Shown: positions 1,167 through 5,518 of the stretch, in pieces
Numbering within the stretch: position 1 is the stretch's first letter
Layout of the letters: each line of letters begins with the position of its first letter
Sequence record: PQ341120.1
Reading direction: 5' to 3' (one strand)
Source: Escherichia phage EAWsc9
DNA length: 64,000 bases
The notes under the pieces: generated by a model
Databases searched by the model: none
Told to the model about the DNA's origin: nothing
The model's input: the letters and a program-made list of their open reading frames with translations, nothing else
Program-made: the position numbers and the translations under genes

Positions 1167-1670
1167 TTAGTTAATACCTTGGCGTGCTTTCTCTTTAGCT
1201 ACACATTTATTAATATAGCTCAGACGGTTTTGAGCAGAACGCTGATACATATCGCGATACTCATTAGCTTTTGGAGAACCCGTCTCTGCTGCCTGATAAG
1301 CTTCCGCGCGCATGATGTTTATCTGCATATTGATGTATGACATGCAGACCTGTGAAATCTGGTTAACAGTATCCAGGTCATTTTGGCGCTTGGTTTCTGC
1401 TTCCAGTTTAGCAATGATTTCGTCATGCTTCGCAGCTTGTTCGCGTTTGTACTCAATTTCACGTTGAGCATATTTCGCGCAGTTATTTCCACATTGATTG
1501 TTGTCGCGTTTGTAGATAAGTCCAGTACCACCTTTGAAATCAAAGGAACCATTATGCACCTGACGGTCTGCAGCAATTCGCGCTTTACCAATCTCACTGG
1601 CATTAACTACATCACCCTGATAAGCACAACCAGATAGCAGCATAACAGCTGCGATAGCTAACTTTTTCAT
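1167..1670 (-). CDS. Predicted lipoprotein (signal peptide + lipobox LLSGC)
   Basis: ORF-track ORF 1167..1697 trimmed to internal ATG at 1670 preceded by GAGGA; product starts MKKLAIAAVMLLSGCAYQG. Confidence 0.6.
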   Translation of the reverse strand: MKKLAIAAVMLLSGCAYQGDVVNASEIGKARIAADRQVHNGSFDFKGGTGLIYKRDNNQCGNNCAKYAQREIEYKREQAAKHDEIIAKLEAETKRQNDLDTVNQISQVCMSYINMQINIMRAEAYQAAETGSPKANEYRDMYQRSAQNRLSYINKCVAKEKARQGIN

Positions 1671-1820
1671 TGTATTTTCCTCAATTAAAACATTCATAGC
1701 GGGCTTGGAGCCCCAAAAATACCCAACCCAAAATTAAAGTTGGAATCATATGCGGAGTCATTATTGCCCAATAGATTGACATACTAAAAAATGCAATCAG
1801 TACAATAATTGTAATTATCT

Positions 1821-2063
1821 TCATTTGGTTTCCTTGATGATAATTACATGTGCATTTGATTTACGCTCAGCAACGAGTGCCCAGATAAATGCAATAAACC
1901 ATCCGACCATTGTCCAACCTAACAGGAGGTTAACAAAGAAGATTCCGCAATTACTTTTGGTTCCTCGCAGTAGCGCGATAATCCACGGCAGAAAATATGC
2001 CAGTGCAGCCAGGAAGAAAGAACCAGCACCAAGAACAACAGTACCTGCAATTAATGTTTCCAT
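1821..2063 (-). CDS. Small two-helix membrane protein at the T4 imm position (Imm-like by synteny only)
   Basis: 80 aa ORF with two hydrophobic segments immediately upstream of gene 43, where T4 carries imm. Confidence 0.5.
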   Translation of the reverse strand: METLIAGTVVLGAGSFFLAALAYFLPWIIALLRGTKSNCGIFFVNLLLGWTMVGWFIAFIWALVAERKSNAHVIIIKETK

Positions 2064-2100: not shown

Positions 2101-2130
2101 ATCATACGGCAATCCTTTGCCGTTGTAAAC
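2101..2130 (-). promoter_or_regulatory. Early sigma70-type promoter (GTTTAC-18-TATGAT) with stem-loop in spacer
   Basis: Minus strand GTTTACaacggcaaaggattgccgTATGAT; hairpin ggcaa/ttgcc in spacer; precedes imm-like ORF. Confidence 0.4.
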
Positions 2131-2132
2131 AC

Positions 2133-4847
2133 TTAAAAATCAAACATATCAAAAAGAGATGCTTTTTTCTCGTAATCAACCTTAGCTGCTTCAGAGAACC
2201 CTGTTAACGGTTTGACAAAAGTCTTCTGGAACAGTGTGTTGTAGTCCATCCACTGCAGAACCTGGTCACGGATTTCAATCGGGAGTTCAATCCCTGATGG
2301 CCATGCAATCACGGTTTCGCCAAACGGGTTACCAACTTTAAGAGGAAGCACATACACCTTTTCCCCTTCCATGATTTGTGGAACAGTCTTCAGACCTTTA
2401 GTTGCACGCATATATGCAAGCACACCTTTGATATGAGCCGGGCACTTAAATCCAGGGAAACCACCCTCATTATATTTCTGAATGTTGTTAACCGATGATA
2501 CACCTGCGATGGTCATGTAGTTAAGCTCATTAAATTCCTTATTGAATTCCTTGAAGTATGTCTGCAGAGATTCTTCACCTTCTTGCAGCATGCGACGGAT
2601 ACATTCTTTCAGAGCTTTCTGGCATGCTTTTGGTGTACTCGACTTTTGAGTTTCCAGACCCATGATTTTCAGTTTCGGAACAGCATATCGTGTGCCTTCC
2701 ATATCGTACACGTTCAGAGCATAACGCTTCTTCGCCGTCCAGAATCCACCAACACCTTTAGAACCCAGCGGAGGGCATGCAATCGCTTCACGGTCCATAA
2801 ACATAAGGTGCTGTTTGTTGTTCATGTATTCAGCCAGCTCACGGAAAGCTTTATCGATTGCCGGTTCCAGACGGTCTTTCGCAAACTTGTCCATGAAGTC
2901 AACCAGGTGGTTTGTATCGCGGAATTTAGATTCACCACCAACCTTTTTAATCAGGTTATCGCACTGAATATAAATGGAGTCAGTATCGCCATAGAATACA
3001 TATGTTTCACCACTTGTACCACAAACACTATCAAAATATTCGTTAACTTTACGCTCAATCCACTGCAATGCAAGTTGTCCGAAAGATGTAATCGCGGTTG
3101 CATTTCGCAGGTCAAAGTAACGGAACCAGATATTACCCAGAGCGCCATAACAACTGTTGATAAGCAGTTTACGGTTAATCTGTGCGGTCATACCTGCAAC
3201 TTCTTCCATCTGCGCTTTGTACAACATACCATTCAGAACTGTTTGATTCAGACCGTGCAAGGTTGTTTTCATATTGTCATCGAAGTCATAACGATAATCA
3301 ACTTCAGGCTCGGTTGTACCAGCTCCTGGATTACGCAGAGCTTCCTTAATCAGTTCACCATTACGTTGAGCCGCAAGCATATAACCTTTGTGCTCTTTAC
3401 GCTGATTAAACACCTTGGTGACTTCTGTCGGAATAATACCTGCAACATCTTTAAAATACATCATGCCATTTGGAGCACAACTAAATGTATCGGATGGACG
3501 GTCAGCGGTTCCTGCGATGTATTCGTACATTGGCGCTGGTGCAAATGAGCCGGCAATCGTTTCTGGACTGATGTTAATCTGTCGGATGATGCTCGGATAC
3601 AGAGATGTTAAGTCACAGCTCATAACGTATTTGTATGCGTTTGGAATCGGTTCCTTAACAAATGCACCAGGGAACGATTGGCGAACATGCGATTTGGTTT
3701 CCGGAATGACTTTGTTTTGAGTCTTCAGGCTGTTAAAGATAATCGCATCCCAAGTTTTGATTGGGCTGAATACAGACTGAATCTGCATTTTTGCGTAATA
3801 ACCCATTGACTGACTAAGGTTAATAAACTGACGCTTACGGTCAATCTGTACAACACGATAAACATCGATGATGTTATAAGAAATATACCGTTGGTGATTT
3901 GATTCACGCAGTTTAGAAATCGGACCATCATACGGGAGTTTACCAACACCTAGCTCAGATTCTGCAACATAATCCAACGAATAAGATGGTTGGTTTGTGA
4001 AGCTGAACTTTTTGTACAGGTCCAGATAATCCAGAACAGAGATACCCAGAATCTGAATGATTTCTTGTTCTTCACCGAAGCCGTTGTTAATGACCTTAAC
4101 TTTTGTACGACGATGTGGGCTCAAACGTTTTGCCGTAGCTTCACCAAATACATTTTTAAGGCGGTTGTAGATATATGGAATATCAAACTTCTCGATGTTC
4201 CAACCAGTTAACATAACCGGAGTTTTCTCGTTCCAGAATACCAAATACTGCTGGAGCATTTCTTCTTCTGAATCGAAAGCCATATAAACAATTTTTTCCA
4301 GGATTTCTTCAGGGACTTCATCGCCGCCATCTTCTTGCAGCTTAGCAGCAATATCGATAGACCATTGCTCCACAGTGGCGTATGGTGAGCTCAAAAGGTC
4401 AAAGACATAGAATTTATCGTCTATCGAATCATAGTGCGTCAGGGCATCAATAGGGTGACGTGCTTCAGACGGCTCAGGGAACCCATCAGGAGATGTCACC
4501 TCGATATCGAAGTTAGCCACACGGATTTTACTTGAATCGTATTTGATTTCGTGCGGGTAACGGTCGGACAAGTATGCGAGTTTAAAGTCATCCATACCCA
4601 TAGCTTCGAGACCCATGTCATTCATTCGCTTCATCCACTGGGATGCATCACGCATGGAATCGAATTCTTTTTTCACACAACCTTTATTATAGATGTCTGT
4701 ATATTTTGCAGCCTGGTCTTCGCGGGCATGCATAAACAGGCATGGAGCATAGGGGATTTCACGAACACGTTCATGACCGTTCTTGTCAATGTATCGTTCG
4801 AGCAGATTGTCACCGATTTGTTCGATAGTTAAATAAAATTCTTGCAT
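2133..4847 (-). CDS. 43: DNA polymerase gp43 (family B, with 3'-5' exonuclease)
   Basis: 904 aa; MQEFYLTIEQIG..., DIE exo motif, SLYPSII, YGDTDS polymerase motif; high similarity to RB69/T4 gp43 from recall. Confidence 0.97.
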   Translation of the reverse strand: MQEFYLTIEQIGDNLLERYIDKNGHERVREIPYAPCLFMHAREDQAAKYTDIYNKGCVKKEFDSMRDASQWMKRMNDMGLEAMGMDDFKLAYLSDRYPHEIKYDSSKIRVANFDIEVTSPDGFPEPSEARHPIDALTHYDSIDDKFYVFDLLSSPYATVEQWSIDIAAKLQEDGGDEVPEEILEKIVYMAFDSEEEMLQQYLVFWNEKTPVMLTGWNIEKFDIPYIYNRLKNVFGEATAKRLSPHRRTKVKVINNGFGEEQEIIQILGISVLDYLDLYKKFSFTNQPSYSLDYVAESELGVGKLPYDGPISKLRESNHQRYISYNIIDVYRVVQIDRKRQFINLSQSMGYYAKMQIQSVFSPIKTWDAIIFNSLKTQNKVIPETKSHVRQSFPGAFVKEPIPNAYKYVMSCDLTSLYPSIIRQINISPETIAGSFAPAPMYEYIAGTADRPSDTFSCAPNGMMYFKDVAGIIPTEVTKVFNQRKEHKGYMLAAQRNGELIKEALRNPGAGTTEPEVDYRYDFDDNMKTTLHGLNQTVLNGMLYKAQMEEVAGMTAQINRKLLINSCYGALGNIWFRYFDLRNATAITSFGQLALQWIERKVNEYFDSVCGTSGETYVFYGDTDSIYIQCDNLIKKVGGESKFRDTNHLVDFMDKFAKDRLEPAIDKAFRELAEYMNNKQHLMFMDREAIACPPLGSKGVGGFWTAKKRYALNVYDMEGTRYAVPKLKIMGLETQKSSTPKACQKALKECIRRMLQEGEESLQTYFKEFNKEFNELNYMTIAGVSSVNNIQKYNEGGFPGFKCPAHIKGVLAYMRATKGLKTVPQIMEGEKVYVLPLKVGNPFGETVIAWPSGIELPIEIRDQVLQWMDYNTLFQKTFVKPLTGFSEAAKVDYEKKASLFDMFDF

Positions 4848-5160: not shown

Positions 5161-5518
5161 TTGTATATTTGGCTACAAGCTTCCAGTCGTCTTTTTGTTT
5201 AAAGGAGATAACACGGAAGTTGTTTGTTACTGCGAACAATTCATTACGCTCTTCTTCTTTGATAGTGATTAAGCCCCAGTCTTCGAGCAGTTGAGTGATG
5301 GAATCACGGCGCTGATAGTCTTCACCATCAATATCCACCTGGCGACCATCCATACGCAGCATTTCTTTGAAGTGAACAATATAATAACGGCCTTGCTTTT
5401 GGAGGATGTGACAGCTCTGGTAAAGTACACGGTCTTTATTATTTGCGATGCCCATACGGGTCAGAGTTTCTTTAACTTTCAGGAAGTCTTCAGGTTGCTT
5501 TAATGTAATTTCAATCAT
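5150..5518 (-). CDS. regA: RegA translational repressor
   Basis: 122 aa; MIEITLKQPEDFLKVKETLTRMGIANNKD... matches T4 RegA along full length. Confidence 0.93.
   Translation of the reverse strand: MIEITLKQPEDFLKVKETLTRMGIANNKDRVLYQSCHILQKQGRYYIVHFKEMLRMDGRQVDIDGEDYQRRDSITQLLEDWGLITIKEEERNELFAVTNNFRVISFKQKDDWKLVAKYTIGN

Follow-up and report, generated by a model that had tools for sequence, protein, structure and literature searches.

In bacteriophage T4, Imm is an inner-membrane protein that halts the entry of DNA from superinfecting T-even phages, by a mechanism that has eluded explanation ever since its gene was cloned. Two exclusion proteins of T4 are known, Imm and Spackle, the latter inhibiting the gp5 tail lysozyme in the periplasm (PMC7677548). 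A phage lipoprotein, T5 Llp, which comprises 61 residues in the FhuA-Llp crystal structure and holds an intramolecular disulfide, binds the periplasmic face of FhuA, jams the plug of this TonB-dependent transporter, and is encoded next to the receptor-binding gene pb5 (PMC9586334). T4 itself encodes a 125-amino-acid (aa) lipoprotein, Imm.1 (MKIAILVIALGLAGCVAQGPVVNQSDVGK; Pfam DUF5481, PF17578), from a gene between gene 43 and imm. Here, the interval between uvsX and gene 43 of Escherichia phage EAWsc9 (PQ341120.1) is examined in a stretch of 64,000 nucleotides (nt), hereafter the window, where a 167-aa predicted lipoprotein is encoded in a short series of genes with an imm homologue. On sequence comparison, this lipoprotein adds a member to a known, functionally uncharacterised family and is a probable distant homologue of T4 Imm.1, and its association with imm makes a part in exclusion plausible. 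It is proposed, with a probability of about 0.45 for the composite reading, that the lipoprotein acts in the periplasm at a receptor-independent, post-adsorption step as an accessory to exclusion or to protection of the infected cell. This role is suggested because the gene is linked to imm (and in Mosigvirus to spackle), because its promoter context is like that of imm.1, and because it is independent of the fibre tip. The lipoprotein would thus be a candidate third component beside Imm and Spackle, or else would serve a separate envelope function.

The first 5 kb of the window are 96-98.6% identical to T-even phages of the genus Gaprivervirus (Yersinia phage vB_YenM_P8, SP18, VR7, and relatives), and the phage is a Gaprivervirus, that is, an SP18/VR7-like T-even phage. 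All genes of interest lie on the minus strand in the order 43, imm, a 47-aa open reading frame (ORF), the lipoprotein gene, and uvsX. Segment 1167-2130 (minus strand) is a three-gene envelope operon that a conserved early-type promoter, directly after gene 43, apparently drives. An earlier note on this DNA had described only two genes between uvsX and gene 43, a predicted lipoprotein of 167 aa and an 80-aa two-helix membrane protein at the position of T4 imm, preceded by an early promoter at 2101-2130. Both ORFs are indeed present in 1167-2063 on the minus strand (ORF list), and the lipobox pattern and the Shine-Dalgarno at the 1670 start bear out the lipoprotein. The membrane protein is a real Imm homologue on grounds beyond position alone (a PF14373 match and 51% identity), and the promoter scores 10/12 and is conserved in relatives. 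The gene count, however, has to be corrected to three, since the 47-aa ORF at 1681-1824 had been overlooked. The features of the locus are as follows.

From its start at 1081 past the window edge, minus strand: uvsX
1167..1670, minus strand: lipoprotein of the Imm.1 PHROG family (phrog_1754), 167 aa, of which 152 aa are mature protein
1179..1496, minus strand: modelled helical rod, with helix 59-130 (72 residues), return helices 135-164, Cys109 and Cys156
1479..1550, minus strand: most conserved core in alignment and model, with the beta-hairpin of residues 41-55 (FKGGTGLIYKR) and QCGNNC at residues 59-64
1566..1625, minus strand: conserved post-lipobox motif, residues 16-35 (AYQGDVVNASEIGKARIAAD), common to T4 Imm.1
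1626..1670, minus strand: predicted signal peptide and lipobox, residues 1-15 (MKKLAIAAVMLLSGC), with Cys15 as the lipidation site
1681..1824, minus strand: 47-aa hydrophobic membrane protein of the Phage_T4_Y02C / phrog_3610 family (ORF list and profile match)
1821..2063, minus strand: imm, encoding an 80-aa inner-membrane superinfection-immunity protein with two hydrophobic helices (PF14373 and phrog_1039 matches)
2101..2130, minus strand: early-type sigma-70 promoter, GTTTACA (-35), 17-nt spacer, TATGAT (-10), just downstream of the gene 43 stop
2133-4847, minus strand: gene 43

The lipoprotein is read from the ATG at 1670, which is preceded by a GAGGA Shine-Dalgarno; the alternative ATG at 1697 (176 aa), used in the SP18 and P8 annotation, has no Shine-Dalgarno and puts an acidic stretch before the signal peptide, and was rejected. 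K2 and K3 are followed by a PS51257-type pattern, AIAAVMLLSGC at residues 5-15 (lipobox LLSGC), and Cys15 is followed by Ala. Conservation in a 21-sequence family alignment reaches at least 90% for both G14 and C15, and Asp at +2 occurs in no aligned member with a lipobox. By the E. coli +2 rule, sorting to the outer membrane is therefore expected, and the lipoprotein would be anchored there facing the periplasm. The conserved motif AYQGDVVNASEIGKAR comes straight after the lipidated Cys in the family alignment and is missing in some short members. Invariant in the 21 sequences are G48, G50, Y53, G61, C109, and C156, and Q59, C60, N63, C64, and A68 are at least 90% conserved, giving a family motif QCGxNC. 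One family member (P0019) carries a conventional signal peptide (…FGVNA) that lacks the lipobox Cys, yet it keeps the beta-hairpin, CGKNC, and both distal cysteines; a soluble periplasmic variant of the lipoprotein may therefore exist.

An AlphaFold2 (AF2) model of the lipoprotein has a mean pLDDT of 77, rising above 90 for approximately residues 80-160. From the N-terminus it consists of a disordered tether, a helix at 24-37, the beta-hairpin (strands 41-46 and 50-55), and the long helix 59-130, which at 1.5 Å per residue would measure ~108 Å and forms a rod of ~100 Å that is charged in its proximal half. Return helices 135-164 run back over its distal half alone. C109 and C156 are roughly equidistant from the turn, so that a disulfide stapling the rod is likely in the model, and their equivalents are retained in the homologues from STML-198, Jiaodavirus, and WSPA. 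C60 and C64 are jointly lost in the Gelderland-, Jiaoda-, and Muldoonvirus homologues, and because they are lost together they probably pair with each other. The four conserved cysteines would fit an oxidising periplasmic location.

That the gene is a chance ORF with a signal-peptide-like start and no function is scarcely credible. The protein is conserved over its full length in many genera, at identities from 99% down to ~25% and with certain Gly, Tyr, and Cys residues invariant, a Shine-Dalgarno stands before the start, and AF2 is confident over the C-terminal half. Several weak resemblances were considered and set aside. Pfam FerB and DUF553 matches fell far below threshold. Kinship to SlyB, raised by the E. 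coli SlyB start (GC...GDVYTASE versus GDVVNASE here), scored E=0.093 in BLASTP and a probability of 4.9% in hhalign. An outer-membrane spanin subunit was likewise rejected, the neighbours being imm, Y02C, uvsX, and 43, with no PHROG spanin match and the holin gene t located beside genes 37/38. A sequence search of the lipoprotein against solved structures returned nothing significant (best E=0.29).

The relation of the lipoprotein to T4 Imm.1 was examined in several sequence and profile comparisons. The window lipoprotein matches phrog_1754 over residues 1-161 (E=4.1e-47) and T4 Imm.1 matches it over residues 1-124 (E=6.1e-43), although both proteins probably belong to the sequences from which the profile was built, so that these matches reflect the clustering of the PHROG authors and are no independent test. 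BLASTP aligns only the N-terminal ~28 residues, with 54% identity over residues 3-29, and default hhalign of the window type with the T4 type gives a probability of 95.8% (E ~8e-9) over the N-terminal 31 columns only. With a profile enlarged to 29 sequences by intermediates and with relaxed settings, the hhalign alignment is colinear over 127 columns and pairs C109 with C89 and C156 with C119 of Imm.1, most of the score being N-terminal. The window lipoprotein has no DUF5481 match at E up to 1, and the same is true of the JS98, CIP9, CBH8, and PG7 homologues; T4 Imm.1 scores 239 bits against this model and the Mosigvirus homologue 37 bits. The lipoprotein is thus a probable distant homologue of T4 Imm.1 that belongs with it in PHROG and falls outside the narrow Pfam family.

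The two proteins share, in addition to full-length membership of phrog_1754, a lipobox Cys15 followed by QG-x-VVN-x-S-[DE]-[IV]-GK, a C-terminal cysteine pair that aligns in the profiles, adjacency to imm, and a position downstream of a related promoter stretch. They differ in length (125 aa in T4 versus 167 aa in the window), in the beta-hairpin and CGNNC module and longer helix that T4 Imm.1 lacks, and in position, imm.1 lying upstream of imm while the window gene lies downstream of imm and Y02C. In tblastn searches the window type was found in 125 phage records (Gapriver-, Dhaka-, Kanagawa-, Winkler-, and Karamvirus) and the T4 type in 657 records (Tequatro- and Mosigvirus), with no overlap between the two sets among the matches listed. 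When 1.84 billion representative proteins were searched exhaustively with a profile, the lipoprotein family was found in only 18 clusters. Public names for the gene have been misleading: it appears as 'capsid and scaffold protein' (P8, PSD2001), 'iduronate sulfatase' (T4 RefSeq imm.1, IME339), 'DNA endonuclease IV' (ESCO10), and 'recombination endonuclease subunit-containing protein' (SHP1), the misnamed records being PP693301.1, OK254198.1, NC_000866.4, NC_055741.1, OM386655.1, and KY979109.1. The present result corrects these annotations.

The association with imm was examined across related loci. The lipoprotein gene adjoins imm and/or 43 in 15/15 related phage or metagenomic loci spanning ten named genera, and it is adjacent to imm in seven T-even genera with three gene orders. 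The order 43, lipoprotein, imm is found in Tequatrovirus, Gelderlandvirus (STML-198), Jiaodavirus, and Muldoonvirus (WSPA); lipoproteins from genera with this order match the lipoprotein family model at E=8.7e-13, 3.4e-9, and, weakly, 1e-3. The order 43, imm, Y02C, lipoprotein is that of Gaprivervirus, Dhakavirus, and a metagenomic phage, and dmd, lipoprotein, imm, spackle is that of Mosigvirus (mobillu). In Kanagawa-, Winkler-, and Karamvirus and another metagenomic phage, gene 43 is followed by the lipoprotein gene, and imm is absent within ~4 kb; a 74-aa product at the imm position between 43 and the lipoprotein gene in Karamvirus (PG7_042) was considered and rejected, as it is soluble and not Imm. 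In the gene 43 locus of the Mosigvirus RB69, only Y02C is kept, the lipoprotein gene and imm being gone from it. Judging from these arrangements, the lipoprotein gene and imm have stayed neighbours in at least two rearrangements, and one of these brought the pair next to spackle. In the Mosigvirus Escherichia phage mobillu (locus 2495-3530), dmd and the primase gene flank an uninterrupted run of the lipoprotein gene, imm, and spackle, seemingly a compact cluster of genes for exclusion at the envelope. A family found beside imm or 43 in 10/10 T-even genera examined is an obvious and cheap candidate for a third exclusion component or a separate envelope function, and one that can be tested through T4 imm.1.

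The earlier note had likened the lipoprotein to T5 Llp, which would make it a mask of the phage's own receptor that binds the periplasmic face of this outer-membrane protein and stops the adsorption of sister phages. Llp and the Cor proteins of T1/phi80-type phages are, like the window protein by its predicted traits, phage lipoproteins that appear soon after infection and face the periplasm from the outer membrane; a phage lipoprotein that is probably early and probably in the outer membrane is what such a mask would be, and Llp acts so on FhuA (PMC9586334). The window protein, for which a disulfide is inferred as one is known in Llp, also has a weak match to the Cor PHROG phrog_1119 (E=0.025). 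However, this match is confined to residues 1-17, the signal peptide, and the mature protein shows no similarity to the profile; at 152 aa the latter is also more than twice the size of the 61-residue Llp and is modelled as a helical rod. Moreover, no receptor-binding gene adjoins that of the lipoprotein, which stands beside 43 and imm, with genes 37/38 lying ~130 kb away in VR7. Nor does the lipoprotein follow the fibre tip. Between VR7 and SP18 the lipoprotein is 97% identical, whereas the last 300 residues of gp37 are 58% identical, a comparison of tip sequences and not of receptors. In every Gaprivervirus record among the matches listed, the lipoprotein is 97.6-99.4% identical to that of the window (31 records at 95% or above), and the VR7 fibre tip is matched at 99% or above only by the two VR7 records. 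On these comparisons there is no co-variation of the lipoprotein with the tip.

The receptors of Tequatrovirus phages are OmpC, Tsx, FadL, or OmpA, and receptors of the porin type, as used by T-even phages, lack a plug. Despite this variety, Imm.1 of the T4 type is at least 95% identical in 502 records. An own-receptor mask is on this evidence quite unlikely, and the Llp analogy of the earlier note is disfavoured by the lack of tip co-variation, the absence of an adjacent receptor gene, and a Cor similarity limited to the signal peptide. As to the exclusion pair that the note had proposed, the membrane partner stands as Imm, a known immunity family, but the locus is a trio.

The proposal that the lipoprotein is a periplasmic accessory to exclusion can be set out as a series of steps. 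Imm would act as the inner-membrane block on the entry of DNA from a superinfecting phage. The lipoprotein would be anchored by its lipid, with a short tether carrying an N-terminal module (the motif helix, the beta-hairpin, and CGNNC), from which the ~100 Å disulfide-stapled helical rod would extend into the periplasm. There, it could target a step such as the passage of the tail tube or needle, or the route of DNA across the envelope, and would protect an already infected cell together with Imm and, in other phages, with Spackle, without masking the phage's own receptor. T4 Spackle (gp61.3) offers a parallel, being a small exported early protein of the periplasm that acts at a receptor-independent step and is encoded in Mosigvirus directly beside the imm and lipoprotein genes; it differs in being soluble in the periplasm and no lipoprotein, and the window holds no spackle gene region. 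A more specific version, that the lipoprotein is the outer-membrane arm of T-even immunity whose rod meets Imm, and perhaps Y02C, to form a receptor-independent trans-envelope barrier to the tail tube or DNA conduit, is rather unlikely. If true, such a barrier would account for the joint movement of imm and the lipoprotein gene and would give a structural handle on Imm. Receptor-independent exclusion genes decide whether related T-even phages co-infect, and are relevant to the design of phage cocktails.

Several observations weigh against a role accessory to exclusion. First, the lipoprotein occurs without a detectable Imm in Kanagawa-, Winkler-, and Karamvirus, and while 19 Enterobacter-phage records carry the lipoprotein, at most 4 records of Enterobacter phages have an Imm match. 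Second, in such a highly syntenic phage group, inherited gene order could be part of the reason for adjacency near gene 43. Third, Lu and Henning (1989) reportedly found plasmid-borne T4 imm alone to be sufficient for exclusion, in which case the lipoprotein is not required for Imm activity. Fourth, homology to Imm.1 rests mainly on the N-terminal 31 residues, with no DUF5481 match. Further, a literature search on imm.1, DUF5481, PF17578, Y02C, PF26865, and superinfection in Gaprivervirus or Dhakavirus returned no functional study, and fold searches against solved and viral structures gave generic helical matches or the family itself only, and thus no clue to function.

The main rival to an accessory role in exclusion, which we regard as somewhat unlikely, draws on part of this evidence. 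It holds that the protein is an envelope-maintenance or lysis-timing factor whose rod stabilises or tethers the outer membrane and the cell wall of the infected cell, for instance in lysis inhibition or against lysis from without, and that adjacency to imm is inherited. Retention of the lipoprotein gene right after 43 in genera with no nearby imm would point to a role independent of Imm, and the strong synteny of T-even phages makes adjacency alone weak evidence for a joint one. The rod itself, at ~100 Å and charged in its proximal half, is comparable to Braun lipoprotein Lpp, which measures ~80 Å. Inherited order alone would nevertheless hardly account for Mosigvirus, in which the lipoprotein gene and imm moved jointly to spackle while Y02C stayed behind, and in Gapriver- and Dhakavirus the lipoprotein gene switched sides of imm and is still adjacent to it. 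Additionally, no lysis genes are nearby, t being beside 37/38, and the lipoprotein has neither a C-terminal lysine nor a cell-wall-binding domain.

Conservation of the lipoprotein within a genus regardless of the fibre tip would also fit a target that is not a T-even phage, such that unrelated phages, colicins, or host envelope defences would be countered through a conserved periplasmic or outer-membrane component of the host. The position of the most conserved residues in the membrane-proximal module is in keeping with this explanation, which is nonetheless unlikely, as no specific target is indicated. PADLOC returned no defence or anti-defence match for the window proteins and a spurious DRT match for T4 Imm.1, and the NCBIfam model 'T6SS immunity periplasmic lipoprotein' (type VI secretion system, T6SS) matched residues 4-35 only, scoring 16.7 bits where the cutoff is 43, and was rejected.

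The identity of the 80-aa product as a true T4 Imm homologue is clear from sequence comparison and already known from public annotation, the VR7, SP18, and P8 records naming its homologue imm. It matches PF14373 Imm_superinfect at E=9.5e-18 (64.3 bits, cutoff 27.9) and phrog_1039 'immunity to superinfection' at E=7e-30, and aligns to T4 Imm from end to end with 51% identity. Both proteins have two hydrophobic helices, which in the window protein span residues ~3-35 and 39-65 (Kyte-Doolittle windows of at least 1.6), and a neighbourhood by gene 43. They differ in that the window imm directly follows gene 43, whereas in T4 imm.1 sits between the two. By homology, the window Imm is assigned the function of stopping the DNA entry of superinfecting T-even phages. 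Matches of the PF14373 type were also found in Salmonella phages of ~42 kb, annotated there as superinfection immunity protein; on the matches obtained, the Imm family extends well beyond the T-even phages while the lipoprotein family does not.

The third gene of the trio, at 1681..1824, is closely packed with its neighbours, its start overlapping the imm stop (ATGA) as in T4, an arrangement of translational coupling, and its end lying 10 nt before the lipoprotein start. It is considered real because its product matches phrog_3610 over its full length (E=7.6e-27), is 57% identical over the C-terminal 30 residues to the product of a 49-aa T4 ORF between imm and 42, and has a homologue in 10/10 related loci scanned, and because the same-position 47-aa gene in two metagenomic loci (L012 and L013) carries a precomputed PF26865 Phage_T4_Y02C match; the window protein itself gave no match to a local Pfam copy. 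In Mosig-, Kanagawa-, and Winklervirus, the Y02C gene stays near DNA-modification genes and away from imm, and this separation in three genera argues that Y02C is no obligate partner of Imm. The T4 Y02C ORF (NC_000866.4, locus 5228-5377, 49 aa) is missing from the RefSeq feature table returned; the VR7 record labels its homologue 'gp42.1', and the RB69 record notes a 'T4 42-imm intercistronic region'. One cysteine, in a C-terminal YEC[FI]N motif, is common to the window and T4 Y02C proteins.

The signals upstream of the trio are consistent with early expression, which we infer for the operon from its promoter. In a consensus scan, TTTACA-17-TATGAT at 2129..2101 agrees with the sigma-70 consensus at 10/12 positions, and both hexamers are kept in VR7, SP18, JS98, and a metagenomic locus (L012). 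In T4, a related stretch (GTTTACA-17-TACTAT...ATCAACT) is found ahead of imm.1, and all four GTTTAC[AT]-N-TAnnnT motifs of the window (4/4) lie on the minus strand, that of the genes. Two further candidates, a promoter-like site at 1843..1814 (9/12) and a terminator-like hairpin at 1744..1722, were at chance level for the region and were rejected. Within the promoter spacer, 10 nt past the gene 43 stop, a perfect 7-bp hairpin (ACGGCAA-AGGA-TTGCCGT) occupies 2106-2123 on the minus strand. JS98 and a metagenomic relative have another stem (TACCAC...GTGGTA) at this position, and the differing stems indicate that pairing has been preserved by compensatory changes; in T4, gene 43 is followed by a terminator-like hairpin in its place. 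The spacer hairpin may be a structure at the 3' end of the gene 43 transcript and would overlap with the promoter that follows.

In the window, the 43-uvsX interval (1082-2132) has shrunk to the three envelope genes. That of T4 and Karamvirus additionally holds gene 42 and a beta-glucosyltransferase gene, and an arabinose-type modification cluster is present in that of Dhaka- and Mosigvirus. Gapriverviruses have been reported to be without known DNA base-modification enzymes, yet to retain genes of the Alc/DenB type (PMC8056088), and the collapsed interval agrees with this absence.

On the uvsX side, the 85-nt gap between the lipoprotein gene and uvsX contains, at 1135-1160 on the minus strand, AATTGCTCTA, then 12 nt, then TATAAT. 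Middle promoters dependent on MotA in T4 have a MotA box, TGCTTtA, ~12 bp from a -10 element, and T4 uvsX is known to have such a middle promoter. By comparison with this consensus, the motif at 1135-1160 resembles a T4 MotA-dependent middle promoter.

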